A program made the position numbers and the translations under genes. Below the pieces are notes generated by a model. That model was not told the origin of the DNA. It searched no databases and was given only the letters and a program-made list of their open reading frames with translations. This document shows positions 129 to 62,977 of a stretch of DNA of 64,000 nt, in pieces; within the stretch, counting starts at the first letter, position 1, and each line of letters starts with the position of its first letter. Origin of the DNA: an uncultured Gammaproteobacteria bacterium (GTDB lineage Bacteria > Patescibacteriota > Microgenomatia > CAYQLK01); NCBI GenBank assembly GCA_964445355.1, contig CAYUKQ010000003.1, positions 3,693 through 67,692 of the forward strand, read 5' to 3'.

Positions 129-139
129 ATGAATAAAAT

Positions 140-180
140 ATCCCGTAGTATTTGATAAGAAAGAAATAAAATGTTAAAAT
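140..180 (+). promoter_or_regulatory. Motif-promoter module copy 1: ATCCCGTAGTA then TTGATA -35, 17-nt spacer, TAAAAT -10
   Basis: Hexamers and spacing read from the sequence; same module recurs at about 870, 2228, 5977(-), 41534(-), 46903(-), 59161 and 62961(-). Confidence 0.55.
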
Positions 181-225
181 ACTGCTTCGCAACTTCACAT
201 TTTCTGGCGAGGTGAGAGTGTAGCT

Positions 226-786
226 ATGGTTGCCGTGTCTGTTGACTTAGTCGGACATCGGTTCGACTGGGGTCACACTGACAGGGTGTGGCTCTATAAT
301 CAATTTATCACAGCTTGCCGTAAGGCAGGCCTTGATATTCGCATGACTGAGACCATGTTCAAGCTCAAGATCGGAACCCGGAACGAGTTTCTGGTTTTTG
401 ATTTTGCACGCTTTGTGACGGATCCGTCTCAGTCCCAGTACGTGCCGTTGGTTGCGGATGTCTACATCAGCTACTCAGACGATGAGGGAGTCGAGCATCT
501 CATCCGTCCAGCTGTTGTGGCTCGCGATCACAGCAAAGATCGGCACCCGATCGGGTGGGCATTCGAGACCGGCCGATTGATTCGGTACAACGGCCGTTTT
601 CAGACGTTCACTGTCGATTTTGGAGAACCGATCAGGTATATCCGTCCCAGAAAAAGTCGGCACCGTCCCAAGTATTTCGCTCTCGGTTCGGTAATTTTGG
701 CCTTTTACTGGGTCAAAAAATACCTTGCCAAACGAAGGAAAAAGAAACGATCCGAGCGTCATTTGTCGTCTAAGAGCGGCAAGTGA
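226..786 (+). CDS. Hypothetical protein, GC-rich (about 55% GC), C-terminal hydrophobic anchor plus basic tail (KRRKKKRSERH)
   Basis: ATG ORF of 186 aa, own promoter upstream and terminator downstream; composition differs from backbone; no recognisable domain. Confidence 0.6.
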   Translation: MVAVSVDLVGHRFDWGHTDRVWLYNQFITACRKAGLDIRMTETMFKLKIGTRNEFLVFDFARFVTDPSQSQYVPLVADVYISYSDDEGVEHLIRPAVVARDHSKDRHPIGWAFETGRLIRYNGRFQTFTVDFGEPIRYIRPRKSRHRPKYFALGSVILAFYWVKKYLAKRRKKKRSERHLSSKSGK

Positions 787-828
787 TCTGGGGGTTTCTG
801 ATTTTGAGTGGAGGTGTTAGCGACCTTT

Positions 829-862
829 GCGCTCTAGGTAATAACTAGGGCGCTTTTTTTTT
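829..862 (+). terminator. Rho-independent terminator (gcgctctag / ctagggcgc stem with one G-U pair, then T9)
   Basis: Hairpin followed by T-run immediately after the 226-786 stop. Confidence 0.65.
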
Positions 863-889
863 GCAAACTATCCTATAGTTTGATATAAT
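861..889 (+). promoter_or_regulatory. Promoter TTGCAA-N17-TATAAT with ATCCTATAGTT element (870-880) inside the spacer; GGAGG RBS at 915-919
   Basis: Consensus hexamers with 17-nt spacing; motif copy 2. Confidence 0.55.
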
Positions 890-925
890 CAGCCTTAAGA
901 ACGTTTAAATTCTGGAGGCTAGCTC

Positions 926-1345
926 ATGCCAACTTTGATGGTCATGGTCCACGACCATCGGCAGGTGTTCGTGAAGGGTGAGTTCGGGCTTCGCGCGGAT
1001 TTTGCTGCCAGCCTGGTCGACGGCGGGCTTGGGAATAGCTTCCGCTTCCATGGCCTGCCGATTACAGAAGCATACTTTCACATCGACGGAGATGCGGAGG
1101 TGCTAACGATCAGGTTGCACCCGCAAGATGATCGGGTCAACGGTGTTGATCGGCTTGAGTTGGTGTTCGATCACGACTCCAATAAGCCTTTCTATGCTGT
1201 TTACTCCCGCTTGTGTGCGTGTGGGGCTTACCAGTTCCGCGTACGCCATTCGGAGGCAGATTTGACTCACACTCTGAGTCGGATCGTGGTCTCGTATCGT
1301 GAAGTTCGCTTAGCAGAATCGGACGCCTCAACAGTAAAGCCGTAA
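926..1345 (+). CDS. Hypothetical protein, GC-rich cassette gene
   Basis: ATG ORF of 139 aa preceded by GGAGG 7 nt upstream and followed by a terminator; no recognisable domain. Confidence 0.6.
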   Translation: MPTLMVMVHDHRQVFVKGEFGLRADFAASLVDGGLGNSFRFHGLPITEAYFHIDGDAEVLTIRLHPQDDRVNGVDRLELVFDHDSNKPFYAVYSRLCACGAYQFRVRHSEADLTHTLSRIVVSYREVRLAESDASTVKP

Positions 1346-1361
1346 ACGCTCGTATTTCTCT

Positions 1362-1398
1362 GTGGCATCTGACTATTAGTCGGGTGCCACTTTTTTTA
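1362..1398 (+). terminator. Rho-independent terminator (GTGGCA...TGCCAC stem then T7)
   Basis: Inverted repeat plus T-run directly after the 926-1345 stop. Confidence 0.6.
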
Positions 1399-1415
1399 TG
1401 GTTTTTTCTTCAATC

Positions 1416-1444
1416 TGGACAAATTAGGCCTAGAGTATTAGAAT
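1416..1444 (+). promoter_or_regulatory. Promoter TGGACA-N17-TAGAAT followed by ATCCCGAG (partial element)
   Basis: Hexamers and 17-nt spacing read from the sequence. Confidence 0.45.
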
Positions 1445-1489
1445 ATCCCGAGCACTTTTGCAAAAAGAGAGGTTCGAAGCTAACTTGCC

Positions 1490-2107
1490 GTGGTTGAAGT
1501 GAAAACGGTTCGGATCCCGGTGTCGCAGGTTAACCGCGACAGATTCAGACACACGACCAGCAACGTTTTCGCGTGGCCGGACTTGGTGACTCAGCTCATC
1601 ATGTCCTCGTCGGCGGTCTTGGGGCGCAACAAGCCGGATGTCAACACTTTGGTGCTGGCCCGGGTCGAACAGGTCAGGCTGGATCAGCGGTTGCTGCTGC
1701 GATTCGTTGCGGCTGGCAACAACGAGGATTTGCACTTGGCGGGTGTGCGGATCGAGCACGGGAGCGAACGATTGGTTACTCCAATGGTTCTCGATTCGAT
1801 GCCGATGATGGCAGCCGTCAAGGGTGTGGCCGGCGTGCCTGGCCAGACCAAGCCACACCATGGTTTTGCCGTGGCATCGCTCAAGGGTATTCTGCCTCAG
1901 GCGCGTGCTTTGGTGCTTCAGCTGCAAGTCCCGCAAGGGGCGGAGGGGCACGTTTTCGGTTGTTTGGAGCCGGTGCGTGATTCGTCCGAGGGCGAAGAGG
2001 AAGTCGCGTTTTTCAGGCATCAGCGCAGATACCCGTCCGGCCAGGGGTACGCTCGGGTCCCTTCCGATGGACAGTATCCGTTGCGACGGCGGTTCACTCG
2101 GGACTAG
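1490..2107 (+). CDS. Hypothetical protein, GC-rich cassette gene (GTG start)
   Basis: 205-aa ORF co-oriented with flanking + promoters and terminators; the opposite-strand 241-aa ORF is R/H/Q-rich with no promoter and is judged spurious. Confidence 0.5.
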   Translation: MVEVKTVRIPVSQVNRDRFRHTTSNVFAWPDLVTQLIMSSSAVLGRNKPDVNTLVLARVEQVRLDQRLLLRFVAAGNNEDLHLAGVRIEHGSERLVTPMVLDSMPMMAAVKGVAGVPGQTKPHHGFAVASLKGILPQARALVLQLQVPQGAEGHVFGCLEPVRDSSEGEEEVAFFRHQRRYPSGQGYARVPSDGQYPLRRRFTRD

Positions 2108-2176
2108 CTCCGAGAAGACTGGTATTGCGATCGAGCAAGCAAGCCGCGTCTGCAACTTGTGCGGATCGAAACAAAG

Positions 2177-2214
2177 GGCGCCTCTGTAAAAAGAGGCGCT
2201 ATTTTTTATTTTAA
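2177..2214 (+). terminator. Rho-independent terminator (GGCGCCTCT...AGAGGCGC then TATTTTTTATTTT)
   Basis: Perfect 9-bp stem plus T-run after the 1490-2107 stop. Confidence 0.65.
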
Positions 2215-2227
2215 TGCTGATTTGGTT

Positions 2228-2268
2228 ATCCTGTAGTGTTGGATTTTTATTGTCGTTGTGGGTATAAT
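2228..2268 (+). promoter_or_regulatory. Motif-promoter module copy 3: ATCCTGTAGTG then TTGGAT, 18-nt spacer, TATAAT
   Basis: Read from the sequence; drives the 2351 gene. Confidence 0.55.
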
Positions 2269-2350
2269 CTCGGACTTAGTTCGTTAACAATCCTCGGGGC
2301 AGCCGAAAAAAGAAAGACAAAAATTCACCGCAAGCAAGGAGTATACGATC

Positions 2351-2800
2351 GTGGGAGTACAAACTCGGGTAAGTCATGTCGACTTTCACACACCTCTTGA
2401 TCACAGGACCAGAATGGTTCTGGAAGGGGGGCAGTTTGAGGCCTGGATTTCGGCCCTGGTCAGGGCAATCCAGGACAGTCAGCCGATTTGGCACAAATCG
2501 GTCGATGGCGTCAGAGTCGAGCCGATCTATCGGATGTATTTTCCTTACCGCAAGTGGCTGATCTTTGGCCTGAGTCTGCCTGAAGGCGGGTCGGGACTGA
2601 AGGTGGTCAACATTGAGTTCCAAACAGATCACCCCAACGTTCCCATCATCAATTCCAGGGTTTTCCCAGAAGGAATTTCGGGGGGAGACAAATTCGTCGG
2701 ATGGCGTTATTTTGACGCTGTCGAACTTCGCGACTACGCCAAGCAGCTGACCGGAATCCATTTTTCGGTTGAGCTGGTAACCACACAGGAGGAGGTCTAG
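2351..2800 (+). CDS. Hypothetical protein, GC-rich cassette gene (GTG start, AAGGAG RBS 7 nt upstream)
   Basis: 149-aa ORF with strong SD; preferred over the antisense 301-aa ORF 2276-3181, which has no promoter or RBS. Confidence 0.6.
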   Translation: MGVQTRVSHVDFHTPLDHRTRMVLEGGQFEAWISALVRAIQDSQPIWHKSVDGVRVEPIYRMYFPYRKWLIFGLSLPEGGSGLKVVNIEFQTDHPNVPIINSRVFPEGISGGDKFVGWRYFDAVELRDYAKQLTGIHFSVELVTTQEEV

Positions 2801-2891
2801 GTTTATCAAAACGTTACGCATTCCCCTGAGGAACCGGCGGTATTGGTGGGCACGCCAGCCGCAAGATCGAATTCCTGTACTGCTAAGCGAC

Positions 2892-3251
2892 ATGATCAAG
2901 CAGTCGGAAGATCCTGAAGGAGCGCTGCAAGGACTGATCCTGAGAGTCGAAGAAGCCAAGATTTTCGGAGCGCGAGCGGTTGCGTTCCGCTTGGAACGTG
3001 CTTTTAGTCGGGGGCCGAAGTTTGCGGCGAGAGTGTATCTCGAGTCTCTTGATGGGGTACGGTTGGAGGCTGCACCGTCAGCCGGCATCGACGGATCGGG
3101 AACGGGTAACCGGATTTTCATGTACAAGGAGTTCTTGACCGCTTTGGGTTCGGCAGATTGTCTGGTTTTTGAGGTCGACACTCTTGACTCTAATCCAGGC
3201 GTGTTTGTTCGAGCACTCCAGTCGGTCGGCAGCCGCCTCCGAAGATCTTGA
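2892..3251 (+). CDS. Hypothetical protein, GC-rich cassette gene
   Basis: 119-aa ATG ORF, co-directional and followed by a terminator. Confidence 0.55.
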   Translation: MIKQSEDPEGALQGLILRVEEAKIFGARAVAFRLERAFSRGPKFAARVYLESLDGVRLEAAPSAGIDGSGTGNRIFMYKEFLTALGSADCLVFEVDTLDSNPGVFVRALQSVGSRLRRS

Positions 3252-3269
3252 ACAGCAAAAGAGCAATAT

Positions 3270-3303
3270 GGGTACTTGTAGAAATACAGGTACCCTTTTT
3301 TTG
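3270..3303 (+). terminator. Rho-independent terminator (GGGTAC...GTACCC then T9) closing the five-gene GC-rich cluster
   Basis: Hairpin plus T-run; GC content falls to backbone level right after. Confidence 0.65.
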
Positions 3304-3511
3304 GATCAGGAGAGTGATGATTAAGACAAAGGATTTTGGTTGCATACTAAATATTGGTGTGGTTATATGAATATATGGGAGGAAATCTGTTGCAGGTTAC
3401 CCTAAATGTATTGTTGGAATTGATATTTTGCCTGGGTCTGGTAGTCGTGTTTTTCCTAAAATTGCGATTTTTTAGTTCAAGTCTATTATTTTCAAACAAA
3501 GGGAGAAAAAA

Positions 3512-5128
3512 ATGAAAAGAATGTTAAAAAAAGTATATTTTGCCTTGATTTCGGTTTTTGCGGGGACTGTGTTAGCCACAGTGGCTGTAAGGGCGGCAGA
3601 CACGACGATCGTGGTGTTACCGGGCGATATGGCGACGAGTGTGGCAGATGTGATTGCAGATCCCAGTAAGTGGATGTTTTATAACGATGAAACTGACACA
3701 ATTGACAATTCACTTGGGTCGTTTGTTTTGGGCCCGGGAGTTACCCCGCTTGGTAATGATAGTATCCAGATCTCAGTCAGCGGTACTCAGAGGCGTAATT
3801 TGGCGACTTATCAATTCAGCGGTACGACCTTGTCTTCAATTACCGAGCTTAAGTTTAGTACTTTTAACCCATCGGCAGGAAATGGCGGAAGTGCCAGTCG
3901 TTCAGGATACTTGCATTTCAACGCAGATTTTAACGGTTCGGATACTTGGCAGAGAAGGTTGGTCTATGTGCCGTCCGTGAATGGGGCAGTGATACAGGAT
4001 ACTTGGCAGGAATGGGATGCAATAGATGGGGGAAATGCAAAATGGCTGTATTCCGGTTCAACCTGGCCGGTGACCGGGGAGCCGGGTTCGACGACAAAGA
4101 CTTGGAGTCAAATATTAAGTGACTATCCGTCGGTCAGGATGCGGGTTACAGATTCATTCTTGGGAATTCGTGTCGGTGAGCCGTATGCTGACGGATATAC
4201 AGAAAATATTGACGGTTTTAAGTTAGGGGTGAGTGGAAATACTAAGATATTTGATTTTGAGGCTTCGGTAGCGCCGGGTGTTCCGACAATTATTTTGCCG
4301 GCAAATAATGCTACGGTGACGAGTTCGGCACTAGTTAAGATCGATTGGACGGATTCGACTGGCGGTTCTAATCCACCGTTTGAATATATGTATGAAGCAT
4401 TTAACGATGCCGGGTATACGACGAGTATTTATACCAGCGCGTGGTTGTCAGTCTCCGAAATACCCACGCCGGGTACGTCACCTGGGGTATATTACGTTCG
4501 AGTTAAGGCTAGAAATGCATTAGGTGATGAGACTGCTTGGAGTAATGACGCCGTTAATCCATACAAAATTACGGTCATTGCTGATGGTCCGGTCTTGGTT
4601 GGGCCACCAACAGATAAGAATCAGTGCAAGAGGAACGGTTGGAGGGTATTTAATAATCCAACGTTTATCAATCAAGGTCAATGTGAAAAGTACGTTAAAG
4701 ATCACAGAGATGATGGCAAGGCGGAGGGGGATTTGCGTTTGATCAATCCTAATCAGAGGATCAAGTTCAAATTATCAGAGAAGGATGTCTCAAACTCTAA
4801 CCATCACAAATCAAAACATAATTATGTTGAATACTGGAATTATGAATATCCTGGTATTTTGCACTACAAAGCAAATGTGATCTGTGCTGAGGTTGATAAG
4901 ATCACAAAAGAAGCGCGTTTTGTATTCCAAATTCCACCAGGTTGGCCAGGTCTAACGGGCTTATATGTAACTGCTTATGTTAAGGATACGAAACAAAAAG
5001 GTGTTGCTGATCTTTATGGTCATGCAGCAACCGGTGATCTGACGATAGCTACGGCTTGGTGTGATACTGGTGTTGGGTTTGCTCCGGCAATGTACTCAGT
5101 TGTAAAAGGTAAAGTTGAAGTGAAATAA
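3512..5128 (+). CDS. Large secreted or surface protein (538 aa) with N-terminal signal peptide, Thr/Ser/Gly-rich beta-type repeats and C-terminal cysteines
   Basis: Signal peptide MKRMLKKVYFALISVFAGTVLATVAVRAA; GGAGAAAAAAATG RBS; backbone GC. Confidence 0.7.
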   Translation: MKRMLKKVYFALISVFAGTVLATVAVRAADTTIVVLPGDMATSVADVIADPSKWMFYNDETDTIDNSLGSFVLGPGVTPLGNDSIQISVSGTQRRNLATYQFSGTTLSSITELKFSTFNPSAGNGGSASRSGYLHFNADFNGSDTWQRRLVYVPSVNGAVIQDTWQEWDAIDGGNAKWLYSGSTWPVTGEPGSTTKTWSQILSDYPSVRMRVTDSFLGIRVGEPYADGYTENIDGFKLGVSGNTKIFDFEASVAPGVPTIILPANNATVTSSALVKIDWTDSTGGSNPPFEYMYEAFNDAGYTTSIYTSAWLSVSEIPTPGTSPGVYYVRVKARNALGDETAWSNDAVNPYKITVIADGPVLVGPPTDKNQCKRNGWRVFNNPTFINQGQCEKYVKDHRDDGKAEGDLRLINPNQRIKFKLSEKDVSNSNHHKSKHNYVEYWNYEYPGILHYKANVICAEVDKITKEARFVFQIPPGWPGLTGLYVTAYVKDTKQKGVADLYGHAATGDLTIATAWCDTGVGFAPAMYSVVKGKVEVK

Positions 5129-5162: not shown

Positions 5163-5200
5163 AGAAAAAACCCGCTCGTGCATGTAAGCATAAGCGGGTT
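5163..5200. terminator. Bidirectional intrinsic terminator (AACCCGCT...AGCGGGTT stem flanked by A-run and T-rich tail)
   Basis: Hairpin between convergent genes 3512-5128(+) and 5286-5819(-). Confidence 0.6.
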
Positions 5201-5285
5201 GTTGGTTGTTGTGGGGGTCAGAAGCTTGCTGATCTTTCGAGCGTTTCTGGCCCTCTAGGCTGAACGGCCCGGAGGAGTCGTGCTG

Positions 5286-5819
5286 CTAGGGATGGAAGAA
5301 GTGGGCGACGAGGTTGCCTTTGTGGCTCTCGGTCAGTACATGGTATTCCCACGTGCCCCAGATCGACCATTCGGGATTGCCGACGTAGCGCGGATCGTTT
5401 TGGCTAACGATTTGGTAGTGATACGCGCCGTTGCCGTCGTATCCGCTGCAGTGGATCATGTTCGAAATGACCCCATGGTCCATGTAGGGGTCGTTGTTGA
5501 AGTCGCCCTTGGTGTGGATGCGATAGAAGCAGGTCGAGAGTGTGTCGGCGTCGAGGTCGGCGATTTCGGTGATGCCGGGAGAAGTGTAGACTCGCCCATC
5601 GCCGAGATCCCAGTAGTAGTCACCTGTCGCGTCGTAGGCGTAGATGCTGTCGTACGTGCACACGACCTGGACACCGGCATCGCCGATGCCGTTATGGTCG
5701 GTGTCCCCGTTGCGGGGAATCATGCAGTTCGTGTTCTTGCCGCCGGCGGCCGAGACGGTCGCGGTTGTGACGAGCATGAGGCAGAAGAGTGCGGTGGTGA
5801 TCAGGATGAGTTTACGCAA
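5286..5819 (-). CDS. Secreted small Cys-, Asp- and Gly-rich protein, GC-rich cassette gene (TTG start, signal peptide)
   Basis: N-terminus MRKLILITTALFCLMLVTTATVSAAGG; about 58% GC; own promoter and terminator. Confidence 0.6.
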   Translation of the reverse strand: MRKLILITTALFCLMLVTTATVSAAGGKNTNCMIPRNGDTDHNGIGDAGVQVVCTYDSIYAYDATGDYYWDLGDGRVYTSPGITEIADLDADTLSTCFYRIHTKGDFNNDPYMDHGVISNMIHCSGYDGNGAYHYQIVSQNDPRYVGNPEWSIWGTWEYHVLTESHKGNLVAHFFHP

Positions 5820-5947
5820 GGTCAGAGTTACTCCTGTTTTTTGCAGAGATGTGAAAGATCAAAATGTTTCGCCCCCACGGCGGAACAAGTGCATTTTTGA
5901 CCAGAGCCAGCGGTTAAGCAGGTCCGGATCAATCAGTGCGATTGCGA

Positions 5948-5990
5948 ATTATAGGTTATAAATCTGTGATAATCAATCGTAAAAGGATAT
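5948..5990 (-). promoter_or_regulatory. Motif-promoter module copy 4 (minus strand): ATATCCTTTTACGA then TTGATT-N17-TATAAT
   Basis: Reverse complement of 5948-5990 read directly; drives 5819->5286. Confidence 0.5.
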
Positions 5991-41497: not shown

Positions 41498-41503
41498 GGA
41501 GCC

Positions 41504-44202: not shown

Positions 44203-44205
44203 AGT

Positions 44206-46143
<1,938 letters not shown>

Positions 46144-46250
46144 TTAATCTGGTTGTTTAGTATTGATTAGATCAATTTAAGGGTGTAATTTAGCCTCGAA
46201 TGAGACTAAAAGATTCTAGCATAGGCCTAAGCTTTAAGGCAAATTGACAA

Positions 46251-46293
46251 TAAAAAAAGACCCGAATTTACCGTTTATAGATAAATGCGGGTC
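46251..46293 (-). terminator. Rho-independent terminator on the minus strand (GACCCG...CGGGTC then T7) after the Nudix gene
   Basis: Hairpin plus A-run on plus, i.e. T-run on minus. Confidence 0.55.
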
Positions 46294-46319
46294 GGTGGTC
46301 GGGTTCTGTTTCGGCGTTG

Positions 46320-46841: not shown

Positions 46842-46872
46842 AACTCCTCCGATTTAATGAGCTATGGGTCTT

Positions 46873-46913
46873 ATTGTACGATATTTTGGCTCAAAAATCA
46901 AATACTATAGGAT
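46873..46913 (-). promoter_or_regulatory. Motif-promoter module copy (minus strand): ATCCTATAGTA then TTGATT-N17-TACAAT, GGAGG RBS before ATG 46841
   Basis: Reverse complement read directly; abuts the holB stop. Confidence 0.55.
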
Positions 46914-47599
46914 TATGGATGAATTTGTTGGTCGAGTGCGATGATTAGATTGTCCAGAGCCAGTCGCAAGCGAATATTGATCTTGGTTAGATTGTTAATA
47001 TCAAGTAGGGATTTCGCCAGAAAGATCTCATTTTTGGTAAGGTCAGTTCGGTTGAGTGCTAGCAGCATAAATTTGAGTAGAAATCTCAGTTCCGCTTCTT
47101 TATATGGGGTGATTAGATTAAGTTTTTGACCCAGATCAAGTTTGGGTGAAACCAGTTGACTGATAAGCGTTGATGCTTGTTGAATCTGAGCCTGGTCAGC
47201 AACCGCGGACTTTGCAGGTGATCGGGTGACGGTGATTACACGGGAAAGAATTGTTGGCAGAATGTTGTTTTTGGTTTCTGAGCGAATAATGATCAAAGTG
47301 GAGGCTGGTGGCTCTTCGAGTATTTTGAGCAGGCTATTTTGAGCTTCGATCGAGGCGTTGGTGAAGTTTTCGATCAAAATTACTTTGTGGCTGGCAAAAA
47401 GCGGACTAAGTGAGGCCTTTTTGATGACGAGGCGTGCGTCTTCGATTGAGAACTCCTTGGCTGGCGTGATTTTAATGACATCAGGGCTGGAGAGATTAAG
47501 GTCAATATTGAGTGTACGAAAAATATTAAGTATGACCCCATCGTCTAATTGGTTGACTAGAAGACGTGGTTGAAAGAGGTTGGTATCAGAATTCGACAT
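46913..47599 (-). CDS. holB: DNA polymerase III delta-prime subunit (clamp-loader AAA+)
   Basis: LLKILEEPP and ILSRV motifs typical of HolB. Confidence 0.75.
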   Translation of the reverse strand: MSNSDTNLFQPRLLVNQLDDGVILNIFRTLNIDLNLSSPDVIKITPAKEFSIEDARLVIKKASLSPLFASHKVILIENFTNASIEAQNSLLKILEEPPASTLIIIRSETKNNILPTILSRVITVTRSPAKSAVADQAQIQQASTLISQLVSPKLDLGQKLNLITPYKEAELRFLLKFMLLALNRTDLTKNEIFLAKSLLDINNLTKINIRLRLALDNLIIALDQQIHP

Positions 47600-47729
47600 A
47601 TTACCCTTTATATTGTTGACAGCTATAACAGTGATGAAGGATATTATATGTTAAGAGGTTTAGCAAAAAGTGATGAAGTTACCCTTAGATAAGGCCAATA
47701 TATAAGTTTGCTTCTTCCATAGACTTTGT

Positions 47730-49505: not shown

Positions 49506-49546
49506 ATAGATATGCAAGAATTGAATTACAAGTTAAAAACAAAAAT

Positions 49547-50608
49547 ATGATGTCGATACAGCAACTATTAGAGACGGTAATTAAAAAAGATGCAAGTGAT
49601 CTGCACCTGGTAGTTGGTCAGCCTCCGATGTATCGGGTCGATGGTGATTTGACGGCAATTCCAGGTGAGGATATTTTGACATTAGAAGCGGCTCAGGTGT
49701 TGATATTTGATCTGTTGACTAGCGAGCAAAAGGAGTTGATCTTGGTAAATAAGGAGTTAGATTTTTCTTTTGGATTGGGTGATGTAGCGAGATTTAGGGT
49801 GAATGCCTATTATCAAAAAGGTTATCTATCGGCTTCTTTGAGGTTGATTCCGTCTAATATTAAGACGATCGAAGAGTTACAGCTACCGAAGAGTTTGCAT
49901 AATTTTGCCAAGATGAGGCAGGGTTTTGTGCTGGTAACTGGTCCAACCGGCCATGGAAAATCGACAACTTTGGCTTCGATCATTAATGAGATTAATCTTG
50001 ACAATCCGATGCATATTTTGACGATCGAGGATCCGATCGAGTATGTCTATCCCCGAGGAAGGGCACTGGTTTCACAGCGTGAATTGCATTTGGACACGCA
50101 TTCCTGGGATATTGCCTTGCGTTCTGCTCTGCGTGAGGATCCTAATGTAGTTTTGGTTGGTGAGATGCGAGACTATGAAACGATTGCGGCGGCATTGACA
50201 ATTGCCGAGACCGGACATTTAGTGTTTGCGACGTTACACACTAATTCTGCTTCACAGACTATCGATAGAATTGTGGACGTTTTTCCCGAGAACCAGCAGG
50301 AGCAGGTCAGGATTCAACTTAGCAATACCCTAGCCGGAATTGTTTCGCAGCGATTGATGCCGGCAATGGGCGGAGGGCGAGTTCCGGCGGTTGAAATATT
50401 AATCGGAACGCCGGCGATCAGGAATCTGATTCGCGAGGGTAAAACTCACCAAATTGATTCAGCACTTCAAACGTCGAGTGAGCAAGGCATGGTTACGCTT
50501 GATGCTTCACTTGCAACTCTTATTAAGGCTGGCAGGATTTCTGAAGAGGTTGGACTTTCCTACTCGACCAGGCCAGATCAGTTAATGAGATTAGTTAGAG
50601 GCGTATAA
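49547..50608 (+). CDS. pilT: Type IV pilus retraction ATPase PilT
   Basis: GPTGHGKSTT Walker A, PilT-type AIRNLIREGK motif. Confidence 0.9.
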   Translation: MMSIQQLLETVIKKDASDLHLVVGQPPMYRVDGDLTAIPGEDILTLEAAQVLIFDLLTSEQKELILVNKELDFSFGLGDVARFRVNAYYQKGYLSASLRLIPSNIKTIEELQLPKSLHNFAKMRQGFVLVTGPTGHGKSTTLASIINEINLDNPMHILTIEDPIEYVYPRGRALVSQRELHLDTHSWDIALRSALREDPNVVLVGEMRDYETIAAALTIAETGHLVFATLHTNSASQTIDRIVDVFPENQQEQVRIQLSNTLAGIVSQRLMPAMGGGRVPAVEILIGTPAIRNLIREGKTHQIDSALQTSSEQGMVTLDASLATLIKAGRISEEVGLSYSTRPDQLMRLVRGV

Positions 50609-50617
50609 AAATAATTA

Positions 50618-51829
50618 ATGGCAAATTTTTTATATACAGCTAAGGCGGTCAACGGAGATACCGTTAAGGGTTCGGTCGAGGCGAGTAATGTCGACCAGGC
50701 ACTTAACGTCATTCGTCAGAATAATCTAACCCCGATTACGATCACGGAGAATAAAAAAGGCGGACTGAGCAACCTGTCGTTTGGCAGTTTGTTCGGGAAG
50801 GTAAGCGAGGGTGATGTGGCGGTATTTACCAGACAGCTTTCAAGTATGGTTAATGCAGGCCTGCCTTTTGCTGAGAGCATGAATATTCTCAAAAAACAGA
50901 CTAAGAATGCGCATTTTTCTGCGGTTTTGGATCAAGTCGGAAAGGATGTTGAGGGTGGAATGAGTTTGGGGGGTGCGATGGGTAAGCATCCAGATGTATT
51001 CAGCCGTGTTTATGTAAATTTGGTTAAGGCTGGTGAGGCCGGTGGTGTGATTGATAAAATCTTTGCCAGACTGGCAGACTCTTTGGAAAAATCGCGAAGC
51101 TTCCATAGTAAAGTAAGAGGAGCTCTACTCTATCCGGCTATTTTGTTAGTACTGATGTTTGTAGTTATATTTGTGATGATGGTTTTTGTGATTCCTAAGC
51201 TAGCAGATCTTTACAAGGACATTGGTGCGGATCTGCCGCTGCCGACATTGATACTGATCGGAGTGTCTGAGTTTTTTGTTAATTTTTGGTATCTGATTAT
51301 TGGTGGTGTGGTGGGGTTGGTATTTTTTTATCAATATTGGGGTAAGACCGAATCGGGACGGGCGTTCTTTGATGATTTGAAGCTGAAAATTCCGGTATTT
51401 GGAAGAATAAATCGGGGAATAATCTTAGTGGAATTTACCAGAACTTTAGGATTATTGCTTGAGGCCGGAGTGCCGATAATTGAGTCATTAAGAATCAGCA
51501 CAGGCATTGTAAACAATGTTAATTATGAGAAGGAGCTCTATTTGTCGATCGACAAGATCGAAAAGGGAGCACAATTGTATGATCAGATCGATCAGTCCGA
51601 TATTTTCCCTCCGATCGTTTCGCAGATGGTAAAAGTGGGTGAAGAAACCGGTAAGCTGGATGACGTATTGAATCGTTTGGCGAATTATTTTGAAGCCGAG
51701 GCTGATCAGCTGGTGAAAAATGTCACTACGGCTCTGGAGCCGTTTATTTTGGTTATCTTAGGATTAGGGGTGGGGTTATTGGTTATTTCGATTATTCTGC
51801 CAATCTACAATCTTACAAGCAAATTTTAG
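50618..51829 (+). CDS. pilC: Type IV pilus platform protein PilC (GspF family)
   Basis: Duplicated GspF domain, three TM segments. Confidence 0.9.
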   Translation: MANFLYTAKAVNGDTVKGSVEASNVDQALNVIRQNNLTPITITENKKGGLSNLSFGSLFGKVSEGDVAVFTRQLSSMVNAGLPFAESMNILKKQTKNAHFSAVLDQVGKDVEGGMSLGGAMGKHPDVFSRVYVNLVKAGEAGGVIDKIFARLADSLEKSRSFHSKVRGALLYPAILLVLMFVVIFVMMVFVIPKLADLYKDIGADLPLPTLILIGVSEFFVNFWYLIIGGVVGLVFFYQYWGKTESGRAFFDDLKLKIPVFGRINRGIILVEFTRTLGLLLEAGVPIIESLRISTGIVNNVNYEKELYLSIDKIEKGAQLYDQIDQSDIFPPIVSQMVKVGEETGKLDDVLNRLANYFEAEADQLVKNVTTALEPFILVILGLGVGLLVISIILPIYNLTSKF

Positions 51830-51857
51830 AAAAATTCTTGAAAGGAGGTGAAATATT

Positions 51858-52409
51858 ATTAATAAGCAAATAAAAAGAGGTTTTACCTTAATTGAACTTC
51901 TGGTTACTATCGCGATTATTGGTGTGTTAGCTGGTGTCGTTTTGATTGCAATCGACCCTGCAAAGCAGATCCAGCGCGCTGGTGATGCCGGACGTAAATC
52001 TGATATTTCACAGATTGCCGGAGCCTTAGAGGCGTATGGTGTTTCACACAATGCGATCTATATTCAAGGTGTAACCGGTTCGTTGTCCGGTGCGGTTGAA
52101 GGCGCGGCAAGCGCGGGTACCTGGGATTCTACCTTAGTTACTTCGGGTGAGATCAAAAACGTGCGTGATCAAACGGTTGTTTATGATTCAACAGCCGCAG
52201 GTACGACATTTAGGGTCTATCGTCAGTTAGCAGCGACCCAATTGGCCTGGGAAGAAGGCGCTAATGACCAAGCAGGTGGTGGAGCAACTACGACTTGTTC
52301 AGCTGCTTACCCTGGTGGTTCAGCTGCGGTGTTCTATGTCTATGACACCACGGCCGGAAAGCCATACTGGCACTGTCATGCGTCTGGTACGGCTCCAACT
52401 GCCCTGTAA
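51858..52409 (+). CDS. Type IV (major) pilin with class-III prepilin leader (M)NKQIKRG|FTLIELLV and C-terminal Cys pair. Apparent ATT start (ORF track starts at internal GTG 51924)
   Basis: In-frame TGA at 51849-51851; GGAGG RBS at 51844-51848; only ATT/AAT codons precede the conserved G|FTLIE cleavage motif. Confidence 0.7.
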   Translation: MNKQIKRGFTLIELLVTIAIIGVLAGVVLIAIDPAKQIQRAGDAGRKSDISQIAGALEAYGVSHNAIYIQGVTGSLSGAVEGAASAGTWDSTLVTSGEIKNVRDQTVVYDSTAAGTTFRVYRQLAATQLAWEEGANDQAGGGATTTCSAAYPGGSAAVFYVYDTTAGKPYWHCHASGTAPTAL

Positions 52410-52490
52410 AGGTATGTATAGAAAAACTGCCCGTTTTCTATGGGTTCTAGGTATTGAGTTGTTCATAGGATAGACACTTACTTAGAATCC

Positions 52491-53111
52491 ATGGCTTGGG
52501 GCGGAAGTAATAATAGAATGCATAAGGGTTTTACATTAATTGAATTATTAATAACCATATCCTTGGTTGGGGTTTTGTCTGGGATCGCCTTTAGTTTGGT
52601 CGATCCGGCTTCACAAATTGCCAAAGCAAAAGATACTTCGATAAAGGCTGAAATAAGTCAGATCGCTGGCGCGATGGAGGCTTACGGAGCGGAAAATAAC
52701 GGGAAATATATTCTGGGTGTCACGACTGCGCCGGCAAACCCAGGTACACTTTCGGCTCCAAACGAGGGATGTGCGGGTACTTCGACCATGTGTCCAGGAG
52801 GTGTAAGCGGAGATCGGGGTTGGGACGAAATATTGGTCGCAAGCAAAATCGTTAAAGAGGTAAGAAATAAGGGGCTAGTTTATGATTCGGATAGTAGCGG
52901 ATCAAGATTCAGGATTTATGCTCTGCTTAATGCGACAAAGATCGAAGGCGAAAAAGGTCGTGAGGACACAACATTTTCGCCAAGCTGTTCGTCTGCTACA
53001 TATACTTACGGAAATAATTCCGAAGTATATTTTGTATACGATTCGTTGATTCGTAAAACCTACTGGTGGTGTACTTCAGCCGGTCCAGTTTGGCCGAGAC
53101 CAAGTTTATAA
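52491..53111 (+). CDS. Second type IV pilin paralogue (leader ...MHKG|FTLIELLI; alternative start ATG 52518), C-terminal disulfide pair
   Basis: Prepilin N-terminal motif and hydrophobic alpha1 helix. Confidence 0.8.
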   Translation: MAWGGSNNRMHKGFTLIELLITISLVGVLSGIAFSLVDPASQIAKAKDTSIKAEISQIAGAMEAYGAENNGKYILGVTTAPANPGTLSAPNEGCAGTSTMCPGGVSGDRGWDEILVASKIVKEVRNKGLVYDSDSSGSRFRIYALLNATKIEGEKGREDTTFSPSCSSATYTYGNNSEVYFVYDSLIRKTYWWCTSAGPVWPRPSL

Positions 53112-53142
53112 AATACTTCAAAAAGTTATAATCGCATTTAAT

Positions 53143-53922
53143 ATGGAAATTGGTTTTTTGATCTGGTTTATGTCTTTTGCTTTTGTATTTGGGGTGGTAA
53201 TGGCGAGTTTTTTTGGATCGTTATCCTATCGGCTTGAGACAAATAAGAAGTTTTTGCTAAAAAAAAGATCATTTTGTCCGAAATGTGAACATGATCTTAA
53301 TTATCGGGATTTGGTGCCGATACTAAGTTTTTTGTTTACAAAAGGTAGATGCAGGTATTGCAGTGTAAGGATCGATCGGAGCTATTTTGTCAGCGAGTTA
53401 AGTGTTGGGTTATTATGGGTGATTTTTGCATGGGGAATTTGGACTAGATTGGAATTTTTCGAGATATCAAATCTTATTCTGTTAGTTTTTTTACTTTTGA
53501 TTATGAGTTTTTTGATGGTGATTGATATTTTTTATTACATACTTCCCCATCAACTTAATGCTTTAGGCTTATTTGTTTTATTAGTAATAACGGGTTTTGA
53601 TCTTTCAGCTAGCAGATTGTTGGGTATGCTGGTCGCGGTTGGATTTTTTGTAATTTTGTGGCTGATAACGAAGTTCAAAGGGATAGGATTAGGTGATGTG
53701 GGTTTGGCTTTCTGGATGGGATATGGTTTGGGGGCTCCAGTTGTTATTTTGGGGTTAATGCTCTCGTTTATTTTTGGTGCGGTTTTTGGGGTCGGATTAA
53801 TGAGTGTTAATAAGAAAGGTTTGAAACAAGCAGTGCCCTTTGGTCCATTTTTGATTTTTGGTTTTGTAATTGCATGGTTCTGGGGTAAGGAGATTTTGAG
53901 TTGGTATGTCGCAAGACTATAG
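53143..53922 (+). CDS. pilD: Prepilin peptidase (A24 family) PilD
   Basis: CPKCEHDL ... CRYC zinc-finger and polytopic membrane domain with catalytic Asp. Confidence 0.85.
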   Translation: MEIGFLIWFMSFAFVFGVVMASFFGSLSYRLETNKKFLLKKRSFCPKCEHDLNYRDLVPILSFLFTKGRCRYCSVRIDRSYFVSELSVGLLWVIFAWGIWTRLEFFEISNLILLVFLLLIMSFLMVIDIFYYILPHQLNALGLFVLLVITGFDLSASRLLGMLVAVGFFVILWLITKFKGIGLGDVGLAFWMGYGLGAPVVILGLMLSFIFGAVFGVGLMSVNKKGLKQAVPFGPFLIFGFVIAWFWGKEILSWYVARL

Positions 53923-59160: not shown

Positions 59161-59201
59161 ATCCTATAGTATTTGAATTAATGTCTAAATAATGATATAA
59201 T
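59161..59201 (+). promoter_or_regulatory. Motif-promoter module copy: ATCCTATAGTA then TTGAAT-N17-TATAAT
   Basis: Read directly; followed by AAGGAG at 59217. Confidence 0.6.
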
Positions 59202-59207
59202 CAAGGG

Positions 59208-59456
59208 AGTTAGCTTAAGGAGAAGCATCTTTTTGGTTGATGAAGAGTTGGTTTGGGTAGGTCGAGGTTTTCATCGAGATCTTCGGAGAATCCGATTCCC
59301 CTGCCGCTCTGATCGCAGAGCCGGATGCTGAGTTCGTGAGGTTCGTTCTGGCTCAGCGTGCCAGCGAATTACCGAAAGAGCTTGTCTCTGCATTGCAGAA
59401 GATCGCGTCAAGCCACGGTGTTACGCTGTAGCTGGGCACAAGGGCTCTCATTAATT
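59208..59456 (+). other. GC-rich (about 56%) mini-transcription unit of about 0.25 kb: candidate small ORF (longest ATG/GTG/TTG frames about 31-33 aa, none with a convincing start) or sRNA
   Basis: Bounded by the consensus promoter and the terminator; an AAGGAG element follows the predicted transcription start. Confidence 0.4.
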
Positions 59457-59491
59457 CCCCGTTTCAGGTTTTACCTGGCGGGGATTTTTTT
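59457..59491 (+). terminator. Rho-independent terminator (CCCCG...CGGGG with inner CAGG/CCTG, then T7) overlapping the 3-prime end of convergent trmD
   Basis: Hairpin plus T-run. Confidence 0.55.
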
Positions 59492-60655: not shown

Positions 60656-60706
60656 AATTAAGTTAGTATTTATGCTTAAGCGATTATACTGGCAATTGAA
60701 GCTGTG

Positions 60707-61456
60707 TCAAGCTTGGCTTTTTGTATTATTACTTAGGTTTTGAAGCGCAGCTTTAGCTGCTTCCTGCTGGGCTTCTTGTTTACTGTTGCCGGTTCCTGTA
60801 CCTGATACGACTCGATTGATCGAAACTTCAACTGTGAATGTTTTGGCGTGATCAGGACCGCTTTCGGATACGGTTTTGTAAAAAGGTGAACTTTTGAAGC
60901 GTTTTTGTACGGTTTCTTGTAGCCGGCTTTTAGGGTCGAGCAGTGAATTTTCTAAATCTTCGGACGGTTTTTTGAGTAAGGTTCGGAAAACGAATTTTTT
61001 GGCTGTGGAGATGCCGGAATCGAGAAAAATTGCTCCAAGTACCGCTTCGTATGTGTTGGCCAGAATCGATTTTGTCTTTACTCCGCCCCGTTCATGCTCT
61101 CCTTTAGAGAGGAATAGGAATTTGGCTAAATCCAGTTGAGTCGTCATGTCGGCCAGACTTTCGGTGCGGACTAGAACTGAGCGGTAGTGAGTGAGTATTC
61201 CCTCTTTTTGGTCCGGGTAAGTTAAATATAGCTGTTCAGAGACAATTAGTGACAGGACACTGTCGCCGAGGAATTCTAGTCGTTCGTTGTCGTGAGTAAA
61301 AACCGTATCCGGTGCCGATACTTCGTTAAGGTAAGATCGATGTACAAATGCATTAGCAAGAAGTTTTGGATTTTTAAACTTAACTCCGATTGCCTTTTCT
61401 GCTTCAGCGACTGGGAAATTGTCGTAAAGAAGTTCGGTATTGGTTTTTTTGGTCAC
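60707..61456 (-). CDS. rnc: Ribonuclease III
   Basis: NERLEFLGDSVL RNase III signature plus C-terminal dsRBD. Confidence 0.9.
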   Translation of the reverse strand: MTKKTNTELLYDNFPVAEAEKAIGVKFKNPKLLANAFVHRSYLNEVSAPDTVFTHDNERLEFLGDSVLSLIVSEQLYLTYPDQKEGILTHYRSVLVRTESLADMTTQLDLAKFLFLSKGEHERGGVKTKSILANTYEAVLGAIFLDSGISTAKKFVFRTLLKKPSEDLENSLLDPKSRLQETVQKRFKSSPFYKTVSESGPDHAKTFTVEVSINRVVSGTGTGNSKQEAQQEAAKAALQNLSNNTKSQA

Positions 61457-61473
61457 AATAAAATTTTTGTAAT

Positions 61474-61704
61474 TTAAAGTTTGTCCTCAACTTCCGATGC
61501 CAAATCGTGAACGGTATTGATCTCCTCAATGTCAGAGTGGGTTAAGTCGATGTCAAACTCTTCCTCCAGAGCGGTAAGGATATCTTTTATTTCGAGTTCT
61601 GATAGATTAAGGTCAATTCTGAGGTCGGAGGTTTCGTTAACATCCTCAATGAGATTGCCTGTTACTTCTGCAACGATTTTGATAACTTGGTTTAGTGTTT
61701 CCAT
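61474..61704 (-). CDS. acpP: Acyl carrier protein-like
   Basis: 76-aa acidic four-helix pattern with a Ser in the DLNLSELE region; position in rnc-acpP-nusB neighbourhood. Confidence 0.6.
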   Translation of the reverse strand: METLNQVIKIVAEVTGNLIEDVNETSDLRIDLNLSELEIKDILTALEEEFDIDLTHSDIEEINTVHDLASEVEDKL

Positions 61705-61749
61705 AGCTAAACTGTATCTTACAGGAAAAAAATATCAAAAAACAACCCT

Positions 61750-62157
61750 TTATTTTTCTACTTTATCAACTTCTGTTTGTTCCTTTGGTTGGCTTTCAGG
61801 CTGAGGAATTTCCTTGACGACCGATCCAAGTACACCATTAACGAATGAGCTGGTATGTTCATTGCCAAATTCTTTGCCAAGTTCGATCGCTTCATCAATA
61901 ACAACCTTTTGCGGTTGGGTCTTGTCGAGTGTTAATTCATAGACAGCCAGACGTAAAACAGCTAGGTCGATTTTGGAGATTTGGTCAATCGGCCAGGCGG
62001 GTGCATTTTTTGCGATTAGTTCGTCAATTTGGTCGAGATGTTTAGTAATCGGGATAATTTCGGAAAAATCTGCCTGAGTATTGTCAAATTCGTAAGCAAA
62101 GAGCATGCGTACAAGTCTGATTCTGTGCTTGTGGCGCGGATCGGTTTTTGATTTCAT
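61750..62157 (-). CDS. nusB: Transcription antitermination factor NusB
   Basis: NusB-family helical pattern (RHKHRIRLVRMLFAYEF, LAVYEL). Confidence 0.8.
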   Translation of the reverse strand: MKSKTDPRHKHRIRLVRMLFAYEFDNTQADFSEIIPITKHLDQIDELIAKNAPAWPIDQISKIDLAVLRLAVYELTLDKTQPQKVVIDEAIELGKEFGNEHTSSFVNGVLGSVVKEIPQPESQPKEQTEVDKVEK

Positions 62158-62494
62158 CGCTTAGCTTGTTTGGCTTATCTTAATTACGATTATACCTGAA
62201 TTAGACAAAATAAATCCTATTGCCGAAGTGATTATTTAAGTGATTTTGGGAAAAACTGATAACAAAGGTTAATAGCTGCGTGTTTTGTACGTATTGCAGC
62301 TTGGGCAAATACGGTGAGGAAGTTTGGGTGAGTTACAATTTTTGCACAGGACGGTTTTGACGCCTGCAACTGATAATGTTGCTCGTCTTTTGCCTTGTCT
62401 GACGTTCGATAAATGTTTTTTTGGTACTGGTGCCATTTATTTTGTTAGTTTGTTTGCTGGGGAATTATATACAAGGCTAATTTTTAAGTCAAAC

Positions 62495-62531
62495 ATAAAA
62501 AATCCCCGCGAACTAATAAAAGTTGCGGGGA
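62495..62531 (-). terminator. Rho-independent terminator on the minus strand (CCCCGCAACT...AGTTCGCGGGG then ATTTTTTAT)
   Basis: Perfect hairpin plus T-run on the reverse complement, right after the 62542 stop. Confidence 0.6.
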
Positions 62532-62541
62532 GGATTGTGTT

Positions 62542-62889
62542 TTATACACAAAGGCGGGTGAGGACTTGGACAACCTCGTGAAGGTGTTGACGGTTGGTCT
62601 CGCCGAGCTGGCTGCGGCGAAGGATTGGGTTCAAGTGCTCTTCAACTAAATGCTGAGAGAGCAGTCGAACGCATTCGGGGTCGCGACGGTCAGGTTGGGC
62701 CAGACAATGCTGCAGTTCACGCTCATAGTTCCTGACGTTGGGATCGGGATTGACCAGTGAGTTCAGATCAAGCGCTGGGGTTTTTGGTGGGGTGTAGGTA
62801 TGTTTTGGCTGTTCTGCTGTTGGGGTAACCGTAGCAGCGACTGGGAGGCGCTTTGTTTTTTTGACTCTTTTTTTGTCTTTCTTAGACAC
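62542..62889 (-). CDS. Hypothetical basic protein, GC-rich cassette gene (GTG start, AAAGGAAAT RBS)
   Basis: 115-aa ORF, about 57% GC, own motif-promoter and terminator. Confidence 0.55.
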   Translation of the reverse strand: MSKKDKKRVKKTKRLPVAATVTPTAEQPKHTYTPPKTPALDLNSLVNPDPNVRNYERELQHCLAQPDRRDPECVRLLSQHLVEEHLNPILRRSQLGETNRQHLHEVVQVLTRLCV

Positions 62890-62931
62890 GAATCTTATTT
62901 CCTTTGCAAGGTGCTGGTTTGTCAGTCCGGA

Positions 62932-62971
62932 ATTTTAGACTCTTTATGAGGTATTTTCAATACTAGAGGAT
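62932..62971 (-). promoter_or_regulatory. Motif-promoter module copy (minus strand): ATCCTCTAGTA then TTGAAA-N17-TAAAAT
   Basis: Reverse complement read directly; drives 62889->62542. Confidence 0.55.
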
Positions 62972-62977
62972 ATATTG

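Follow-up and report, generated by a model that had tools for sequence, protein, structure and literature searches.

GC-rich promoter-gene-terminator units, probably old and vertically inherited, in a Patescibacteriota chromosome

Among described genetic systems, the moron of temperate phages, a promoter-gene-terminator unit inserted between phage genes (PMC2920897), is the nearest known concept for the elements reported here. These are 11 GC-rich, apparently autonomous transcription units (C1 to C5, a pyrF-pyrE unit and C7 to C11, also called cassettes in the following) in 64,000 nucleotides (nt) of contig CAYUKQ010000003.1 (assembly GCA_964445355.1, positions 3,693 to 67,692), hereafter the window, from a bacterium that is titled an uncultured gammaproteobacterium and belongs by its GTDB lineage to the Patescibacteriota. 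Like morons, the units each consist of one or two genes that have a promoter and an intrinsic terminator of their own and lie between unrelated genes, differ in GC content from their surroundings and carry a mixed, often unknown cargo. Unlike morons, they are hosted not by a prophage but by a housekeeping chromosome (gyrB, gyrA, dnaB, holB, efp, trmD, nusB, rnc, type IV pilus genes and one tRNA-Leu). Their proteins had no significant match in PHROGs (one marginal match, C5, E = 0.006), and searches of viral contigs with C1 and C5 gave no relatives. Furthermore, the units keep their sites in diverged relatives rather than varying in presence (C8 alone is lacking, from the relative L066), they mostly share one promoter element, and their GC deviation persists. 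We consider it probable that they are old, lineage-specific and vertically inherited autonomous units in a chromosome of the candidate phyla radiation (CPR), ten of them protein-coding and one encoding a structured RNA.

Integron cassettes resemble the units in the tandem, same-orientation array of small, mostly unknown genes (134-3305 and its upstream part in the relative L060) and in the repeated sequences between cassettes in some relatives. However, every unit brings its own promoter and ends in a plain terminator, an integron integrase with attI and Pc is absent, many units are solitary, and their order is conserved. An attC-like shared site was not recognized at the 3' ends in the window, which are unrelated GC hairpins with T-runs (by repeat comparison; no dedicated attC model was run). 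The only tyrosine recombinase (38001-38972) is XerC/D-like and a syntenic single copy in the three relatives whose loci span it. On this point, the first-pass annotation of the window, which had set the units apart from integron architecture, was right. Genomic islands or islets from recent horizontal gene transfer (HGT) have in common with the units the sharp contrast in GC content and codon usage, the lineage-restricted genes and, for one unit, the location by a tRNA gene. Here, however, there are no mobility genes, flanking repeats or donor homologues (all homologues are clade-internal), the sites are the same in all relatives tested, and amelioration is not seen over saturated synonymous divergence. 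The tRNA-Leu lies near pyrF-pyrE, an arrangement that is ancestral (L062, L064). Propagated ("mobile") promoters and intergenic repeats like the repetitive extragenic palindromes (REP) are a further known class; near-identical modules around unrelated genes in the relatives L018, L028 and L044 are akin to them, whereas the window shares only a 12- to 16-nt element, which is a phylum-conserved promoter part, and no transposase was seen.

GC-rich units and their conserved positions

The eight GC-rich patches in an AT-richer backbone that the first-pass annotation had described (134-3305, 5163-5990, 27500-29195, 39054-39550, 40704-41543, 46251-46913, 59161-59491 and 62495-62971) stand out in the 400-nt sliding GC profile and in disjoint classes of GC content at third codon positions (GC3). 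Backbone GC is about 0.36-0.47, and the patches peak at 0.61 (1601-2200), 0.60 (5401-5800), 0.51-0.57 (27401-29200), 0.54 (39001-39400), 0.61 (40801-41200) and 0.58 (46401-46800); owing to their short length, the final two peak at only about 0.48 in the 400-nt profile. GC3 is 0.53-0.81 in the 11 open reading frames (ORFs) of the cassettes and 0.30-0.52 in 56 backbone ORFs (Mann-Whitney P = 9e-8), and the coding pattern GC1 > GC2 < GC3 is present in the cassette ORFs. The GC-rich units make up 13% of the window length. As read from the sequence and from pattern scans, a sigma70-like promoter stands at the head of every patch and a GC hairpin with T-run at its end, and the patch 134-3305 holds four units in tandem. 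Over the whole window, counts from simple promoter and terminator scans were not above those in shuffled sequence, and therefore, the case for promoters and terminators rests on their position and on their conservation in relatives. Together, scans, sequence reading and conserved elements bear out the earlier description of autonomous promoter-gene-terminator units in intergenic positions between housekeeping genes. The cargo had been listed correctly as well: five unknown proteins, a secreted Cys-containing protein, pyrF-pyrE, a Nudix-fold protein, a basic protein, an ORF without a canonical start (C7), an ORF-less unit (C8) and a mini-unit (C10). The units are as follows ("motif" is the shared promoter element described below).

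C1, 134-860, plus strand: motif 140-151, -35 hexamer 152-157, -10 hexamer 175-180, ORF 226-786 (186 amino acids), terminator 829-853 plus T-run; GC3 0.58.
C2, 861-1397, plus strand: TTGCAA-17-TATAAT at 861-889 with the motif (870-881) within the spacer, ORF 926-1345 (139 amino acids), terminator 1362-1390; GC3 0.62.
C3, 1416-2210, plus strand: TGGACA-17-TAGAAT at 1416-1444 with a degenerate motif, CCTAGAGTAT, in the spacer, ORF 1490-2107 (205 amino acids), terminator 2177-2200; GC3 0.72.
C4, 2228-3305, plus strand, bicistronic: motif 2228-2239, -10 hexamer 2263-2268, ORFs 2351-2800 (149 amino acids) and 2892-3251 (119 amino acids), terminator 3270-3295; GC3 0.61 and 0.56.
C5, 5164-5990, minus strand: TTGATT-17-TATAAT at 5976-5948 preceded by a degenerate motif, ATCCTTTTACGA, ORF 5819-5286 (177 amino acids), hairpin 5198-5171 plus T-run; GC3 0.81.
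pyrF-pyrE unit, 27461-29190, plus strand: TAGACA-17-TAGTAT at 27461-27489, pyrF 27532-28386, pyrE 28414-29073, hairpin plus T-run at about 29142-29190; GC3 0.59 and 0.60.
C7, 38994-39550, minus strand: weak promoter near 39535-39505, frame open from about 39550 to 39054, terminator 39037-38998 plus T-run.
C8, 40704-41544, minus strand, no credible ORF: motif 41544-41533, TTGACA-17-TATAAT at 41532-41504 (12/12 match), GC-rich body of about 790 nt, terminator 40739-40711.
C9, 46252-46913, minus strand: motif 46913-46902, TTGATT-17-TACAAT at 46901-46873, ORF 46841-46320 (173 amino acids), terminator 46293-46259 plus T-run.
C10, 59161-59491, plus strand, mini-unit: motif 59161-59172, TTGAAT-17-TATAAT at 59173-59201, small ORF at about 59234-59431, terminator 59456-59491.
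C11, 62498-62971, minus strand: motif 62971-62961, TTGAAA-17-TAAAAT at 62960-62932, ORF 62889-62542 (115 amino acids, basic N terminus), terminator 62531-62503 plus T-run; GC3 0.53.

Relatives, whose loci carry L numbers here, were found through exact-protein look-ups and homologue searches. They comprise independent assemblies of the same strain (L002, L003 and L061; 99.4-100% identity) and a graded series consisting of L001 (98%), L060 (78% at the nucleotide level), L031 (71% at the nucleotide level) and then L066, L062/L067, L064 and L068. The first-pass annotation had read the units as horizontally acquired or mobile cassettes, had proposed to look for presence or absence in precise bounds of promoter and terminator, and had itself named orthologues at identical positions in all relatives, without boundary signal, as evidence to the contrary. 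Orthologues at identical positions were found for seven of the 11 units (C1-C3, pyrF-pyrE, C7, C9 and C10), down to 50% protein identity, the others being untraced. Neither recent acquisition nor a presence/absence polymorphism was borne out: positions are conserved with C8 missing only in L066, GC content is kept at saturated synonymous divergence (dS), and there are no donor homologues and no mobility genes at the unit borders in the window. In L062 and L064, pyrF-pyrE is flanked by dnaB/tRNA-Leu and efp; holB and gyrB flank C9 in L066, L067 and L068, and the motif promoter of C9 is kept in all three; C7 orthologues of 136-153 amino acids follow the SIMPL gene in the same three relatives; and in L031, a pilus gene and trmD enclose C10, whose ORF of 67 amino acids is intact there. 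In the window, the C10 ORF is frameshifted relative to that of L031. The first canonical start of the C7 frame in the window is a TTG at 39386, and the conserved N-terminal part has none before it. The minus frame matches L066 at 72% identity compared to 47% for the opposite frame, which identifies the minus strand as the coding strand.

In L060, C1-C3 are the last three of an array of small genes without Pfam match, with eight more units upstream (seven on the plus strand and one small, divergent unit on the minus strand). Since C1-C3 close this array, the window starts inside an array of at least 13 units. The L060 orthologues of C1 and C2 are 83% and 77% identical at the protein level. Between the window and L060, the promoter and 5' untranslated region (UTR) of C1 are 91% identical compared to 80% for the coding sequence; the promoter cores of C2 and C3 are nearly invariant, while the remaining intergenic DNA is 64-69% and the coding sequence 69-76% identical; and terminator stems are maintained through paired changes. 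As an aside on the relatives, L031, L028, L044 (CAYOLO01), L018 and L064 (CAYGIG01) are metagenome-assembled genomes titled "uncultured Gammaproteobacteria", yet syntenic with the window at 71-81% nucleotide identity; these titles of the CAYOLO01 and CAYGIG01 records are probably wrong.

The ratio of nonsynonymous to synonymous divergence (dN/dS) is 0.08, 0.10 and 0.23 for C1, C2 and C3 against L060 and 0.14 and 0.11 for C9 and C7, and therefore, these are real genes under purifying selection. They evolve faster than the backbone (dN 0.16-0.18 compared to 0.01-0.12). Between the window and L066, backbone dS is 1.3-2.4 (one estimate is undefined) and cassette dS is 1.07 and 1.59, a similarity that is compatible with co-inheritance. 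The GC excess outlasts this saturation. In the window and L066, cassette GC3 is 0.61-0.69 compared to 0.43-0.48 for the backbone (C9, 0.65 compared to 0.45 in the adjoining genes); in L068, 0.48-0.55 compared to 0.25-0.39 (about +0.2); and in L067, 0.55-0.60 compared to 0.44-0.56 (about +0.07). pyrF-pyrE lies 10-13 GC points above its neighbours in L062 and L064. The excess persists beyond saturation and follows the backbone GC of each genome, which would not be expected of a fading import signal. Compared to genes on the same strand, third codon positions are enriched in both C and G (C3 and G3), amino acid usage is shifted (Arg 7.7 compared to 4.5%, Lys 4.2 compared to 7.1% and Ile 4.7 compared to 8.0% in cassettes and backbone, respectively), and the GC content of the UTRs is 0.45 and 0.52 compared to 0.38 in backbone intergenic DNA. 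Translational selection was considered as the sole cause of the GC excess and rejected, since G3 and C3 are both raised, amino acid usage and UTRs are shifted and rpmE and efp are not GC-rich.

A near-palindromic promoter element

A 12-nt near-palindrome, ATCCTATAGTAT, is common to seven of the units, where it abuts the -35 hexamer or sits in the spacer beside the -10 hexamer. The 16-mer ATCCTATAGTATTTGA, with up to three mismatches, has eight sites in the window, compared to 0.52 expected and a maximum of three in any of 100 shuffles. A weight-matrix scan added the copy of C2, and seven of the resulting nine motif sites lie at the 5' edge of GC-rich units (binomial P = 2e-5). The motif occurs in two registers, which differ by 21 nt, i.e., two helical turns. 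In the first, it is followed by TTGAnn, 17 nt and TAnAAT and is centred at about -41.5; in the second, it is followed by TGnTAnAAT and centred at about -20.5 (C2, C3 and several units of L060 and L068). In six promoters of the window, CCTATAGTAT stands immediately 5' of TTGAnn, with a spacer of 17 ± 1 nt to TAnAAT. The common promoter type proposed in the first-pass annotation is thereby confirmed, and it can be written as ATCCTATAGTAT plus TTGAnn-17-TAnAAT or as the motif followed by TGnTAnAAT; the shared motif itself is an addition to that annotation.

The pattern CCTATAGTATTTGA-N18-20-TAnAAT was found at 56 loci in a collection of species-representative genomes, mostly of WWE3, Microgenomates, Saccharibacteria and relatives of the window. 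At least 29 of these loci are labelled WWE3, Woese-, Dojka-, Roizman-, Gottesman- or Levyibacteria, Patescibacteria or Saccharibacteria, and 12 further ones "uncultured Gammaproteobacteria", of which four (L018, L028, L031 and L044) are demonstrably related to the window. IMG/VR held only three matches. In WWE3 RAAC2, the element stands before a gene of normal GC content that encodes an ordinary secreted protein. Since it is found before ordinary genes in distant lineages, the element is a typical promoter feature of the phylum and not specific to cassettes; within the clade, it is used almost exclusively by the GC-rich units. A 5S rRNA downstream of the motif in WWE3 loci was also considered and ruled out, the secreted-protein gene being found there instead. 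Our search of the literature on the motif, on CPR promoters and on GC heterogeneity in the CPR returned nothing relevant.

Judged from its sequence and spacing, the element most likely functions either as an upstream promoter element or as a binding site for a dimeric regulator, through which the set would be co-regulated. Class II activator sites and UP-like elements belong to sigma70 promoters. The near-palindrome resembles them in abutting the -35 hexamer with its centre at about -41.5 and differs in its second register in the spacer at about -20.5.

Two motif sites form an inverted pair and are the only ones without GC-rich DNA downstream.

36652-36667, plus strand, and 37109-37094, minus strand: inverted motif pair flanking the start of an AT-rich, gene-poor region by the XerC/D-like recombinase gene.

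The copy just after the DUF5656 gene is kept in L062, L066, L067 and L068. The region itself (36650-38000, 0.30-0.38 GC), between the DUF5656 gene and the XerC/D-like gene, contains two TTTGATATAGTTTGATATAC-like promoter sequences (36830 and 37429).

Turnover of the units and origin of their GC excess

Several relatives contain traces of duplication. C1 has a 29%-identical paralogue (L060_1064) in its own array, L068 has an extra C9-like paralogue (x182), L044 and L028 (one genome) carry diverged duplicates of a multigene stretch that includes GC-rich genes, and genes of L018 are also among the cassette paralogues. The terminator CGCCCTCCCGTAAAAAGGAGGGCATTTT is present in five, three and four copies in L018, L028 and L044 (71-100% identity in L018), a 70-nt junction of terminator and promoter is present in three copies in L018, and a 40-nt promoter module recurs, with 95% identity between two copies in L044. 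The ORFs that these repeated modules separate are at most distantly related. Repeats of this length are absent from the window, as are a shared 3' repeat and flanking direct repeats. The paralogues and the repeated junction modules in relatives make spread by duplication plausible; they point to enlargement of the set through duplication and to recombination or conversion between junctions, not to a site-specific cassette machinery, and a slow, duplication-driven cassette dynamic is conceivable. The arrays of L018 (1-3000), L028 and L044 also have a 96-nt repeat upstream of promoters, and several of their peptides are short membrane proteins.

In our model, a strong sigma70-type promoter of its own would drive each unit and an intrinsic terminator would end the transcript, which would make expression independent of the flanking housekeeping operons. 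The units pass vertically within a family-level clade, under purifying selection and with faster evolution than backbone genes. Their GC excess, seen across all codon positions, amino acid composition and UTRs, would be a maintained property and not the decaying trace of a recent import; it may be maintained by selection for RNA stability, by GC-biased conversion or repair tied to strong transcription, or by repeated recombination. Duplication, together with recombination between terminator-promoter junctions that resemble each other, probably enlarged the set, and the ORFs then diverged rapidly, as the paralogues and junction modules suggest. Several observations weigh against this model. C4, C5 and C11 were not traced into distant relatives; pyrF-pyrE, C7 and C5 have no clear motif; the two motif registers are at odds with one simple activator model; and the units in the window have only 12-16 nt in common instead of whole modules. 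Furthermore, neither rpmE, the sole ribosomal-protein gene in the window, nor efp is GC-rich, and therefore, high GC is not simply and generally coupled to high expression. The argument from persistence is built on saturated dS estimates and on four to five genomes, and a test for amelioration, in which the differences between the window and L001 were polarised with L066, was underpowered, with two changes in cassettes. Promoter strength and independent transcription are read from the sequence.

Other explanations start from the same data. The ancestor of the clade may have taken up GC-rich DNA from an unsampled donor or element, after which host-type promoters were gained in place and amelioration stayed incomplete, with parallel drift. 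Such an ancient HGT is possible, although we regard it as unlikely. The GC-shifted amino acid composition and the GC-rich 3' UTRs do resemble inherited blocks, the genes come on top of a conserved CPR core and are restricted to the clade, relatives of PyrF outside the clade do not exceed 42% identity, and at third positions of C9, GC-to-AT changes outnumber AT-to-GC changes (11 compared to 4-6). However, at a saturated dS of 1.1-2.4 and with proteins only 50-75% identical, a relic signal should have mostly decayed, whereas a GC3 excess is found in every lineage and tracks its own backbone (about +0.07 in L067 and about +0.2 in the window, L066 and L068). Nor were donor homologues found among 5.8e9 and 1.84e9 proteins, and in seven units, the phylum's own promoter element stands at the exact GC boundary. 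A bolder version of our own model is more doubtful still: the GC-rich genes and the RNA of about 0.8 kb would form a compartment with one operator tag, actively held 10-20 GC points up by selection on transcripts or by GC-biased repair linked to transcription or recombination, and growing through recombination at standard terminator-promoter junctions without an integrase. If true, this would be an integrase-free cassette system and a counterexample to the rule that atypical composition equals recent transfer.

It is also imaginable that the near-palindrome or the terminator-promoter junction is a recombination site of an active cassette system, an integron analogue without attC, with the XerC/D-like protein (38001-38972) as the candidate enzyme. 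The tandem, same-strand array of at least 13 units, the motif at 5' edges, the inverted motif pair next to the recombinase gene, the near-identical junction modules between unrelated ORFs in L018, L028 and L044, the absence of C8 from L066 and the replaced 5' part of C8 in L001 would all fit. We nevertheless consider this highly improbable, because unit order and position are conserved in all relatives examined, the motif has the spacing of a promoter element and is found before ordinary genes in distant lineages of the CPR, the recombinase gene is of the Xer type, conserved, syntenic and present in one copy, target duplications and shared 3' sites are absent from the window, and the replacement in L001 lies within a wider tract of homologous recombination that covers gyrA. 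Very little speaks, likewise, for a terminator-promoter element that spread between genes in the manner of REP or miniature inverted-repeat transposable elements and now frames unrelated genes: it would explain the five copies of CGCCCTCCCGTAAAAAGGAGGGCATTTT and the three 70-nt junctions in L018 and the recurring 40-nt promoter module, and the loop of the C3 terminator in the window resembles the repeated module, but it leaves unexplained why the framed genes, and they alone, are GC-rich orphans. In addition, the terminators of the window all differ, and no REP-associated tyrosine transposase (RAYT) or IS200-type transposase was seen in the gene list of any locus. That an assembler or binning joined GC-rich pieces of another organism to this chromosome can be practically dismissed; nothing beyond the contrast in composition favours it, and the same junctions recur in independent ENA, Logan, NCBI and JGI assemblies and in diverged relatives.

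Atypical GC content is routinely taken as a mark of recent HGT that fades with time. Here, the excess persists despite saturated synonymous sites, so that either amelioration can be blocked for particular transcription units or some force raises GC locally. For an uncultured phylum, the locus also yields a candidate promoter or operator element, a candidate large structured RNA and a set of co-tagged orphan genes, which may matter for a symbiotic lifestyle.

Cargo proteins, the candidate RNA C8 and neighbouring DNA

The proteins of C1-C5, C7 and C9-C11 had no match in Pfam, PADLOC or NCBIfam apart from a subthreshold NUDIX match of C9; pyrF and pyrE are the exceptions that families recognise. 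By the homologue searches, the cassette proteins have few or no homologues beyond the clade. C1 had eight matches among 1.84e9 representative proteins, of which five are small orthologues or paralogues and three reflect low-value repeat similarity to giant TIG-type proteins; an exact-sequence look-up of the protein returned no record. C3 had only two homologue clusters among 5.8e9 proteins, and C9 had seven, all within the clade. For PyrF, ten clusters at 57% identity or more were followed by one at 42%. PDB sequence searches with C5 and C9 gave nothing significant. C1 has a predicted C-terminal helix that looks membrane-spanning by composition, and its AlphaFold2 model (predicted local distance difference test [pLDDT] score, 79) had no match in a fold search against the PDB. 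The N terminus of C5 resembles a signal peptide, and the protein has several Cys residues. According to its AlphaFold2 model (pLDDT, 80), C9 has the Nudix alpha/beta/alpha fold: the top Foldseek matches in the PDB are all Nudix domains (E = 3e-8 to 4e-6), and the Pfam NUDIX score is 20.1 with a cutoff of 21.1. Its Nudix box is partly degenerate relative to GX5EX7REUXEEXGU. The alignment reads G75...R96-I-V-S-E-E-L-G-G, in which EE and G are invariant and the first Glu and the Glu of RE are substituted.

C8 is the unit without a credible ORF. The ORF 40866-41309 in it lacks a codon-position GC pattern (0.57/0.54/0.60), and its translation is only 66% conserved in L001, where the DNA is about 91% identical. 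Aligned with L001, L067 and L068, C8 has long invariant blocks between variable hairpins, and of 52 predicted pairs, nine have compensatory double changes. C8 is thus a candidate for a new large (about 0.8 kb) structured RNA, resting on three independent lineages. A covariance model found only its four training loci in 426 kb, with one copy per genome and at this site only. Rfam gave no relevant match for C8 of the window or of L067 at gathering or permissive thresholds (E up to 1-5), and a metagenome scan with a conserved 22-mer of C8 gave chance matches only. In L001, the 3' end of gyrA and the 5' part and promoter of C8 are replaced by other sequence (gyrA, 840 compared to 873 amino acids). 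gyrA of the window (41332-44202) has 153 differences from L001 (10886-14147), compared to 1-15 substitutions per gene elsewhere; by this pattern, the replacement looks like a tract of homologous recombination. Between C8 and the SIMPL gene lies a second noncoding unit (40375-40700, minus strand) with the promoter TTGACT-16-TACAAT at 40698-40671, about 300 nt without an ORF, a long end hairpin (caggtgaagacg...cgtcttcacctg) and a T9 run about 15 nt beyond. Its promoter and parts of its body are kept in L066 and L067, and it has no Rfam match.

The neighbourhood of pyrF-pyrE has changed in several ways. PyrE is 43-44% identical to its positional counterpart in L062/L064, compared to 64% for PyrF, and therefore, pyrE is evolving much faster or was replaced. 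A class IV aminotransferase gene (26604-27449, GC 0.40) lies between tRNA-Leu and pyrF and is absent there in L062, L063 and L064, which is a genuine presence/absence difference, but of the backbone type. A GC-rich gene for a zinc-ribbon-like protein of 92 amino acids follows pyrE in L062 (the sequence is also in L064) and is lost in the window. Between C4 and C5, the window encodes a secreted protein of 538 amino acids without Pfam match (3512-5128, GC 0.45), which is kept in the same-strain contig L061.

Third codon positions in the window have a strong strand asymmetry, with C/(C+T) of about 0.2-0.3 and G/(G+A) of about 0.5 in plus-strand backbone genes and 0.5-0.6 and about 0.2, respectively, in minus-strand genes. 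The cumulative GC skew climbs monotonically, and hence, the window lies on one replichore. Compared to the window (36630-53922), L066 and L062/L067, the whole block from the prepilin-peptidase gene to xerC has the opposite orientation in L068. GC skew in the window is 0.02-0.15 over 39.5-47 kb compared to 0.2-0.45 elsewhere, which fits an inversion that has not yet re-equilibrated.

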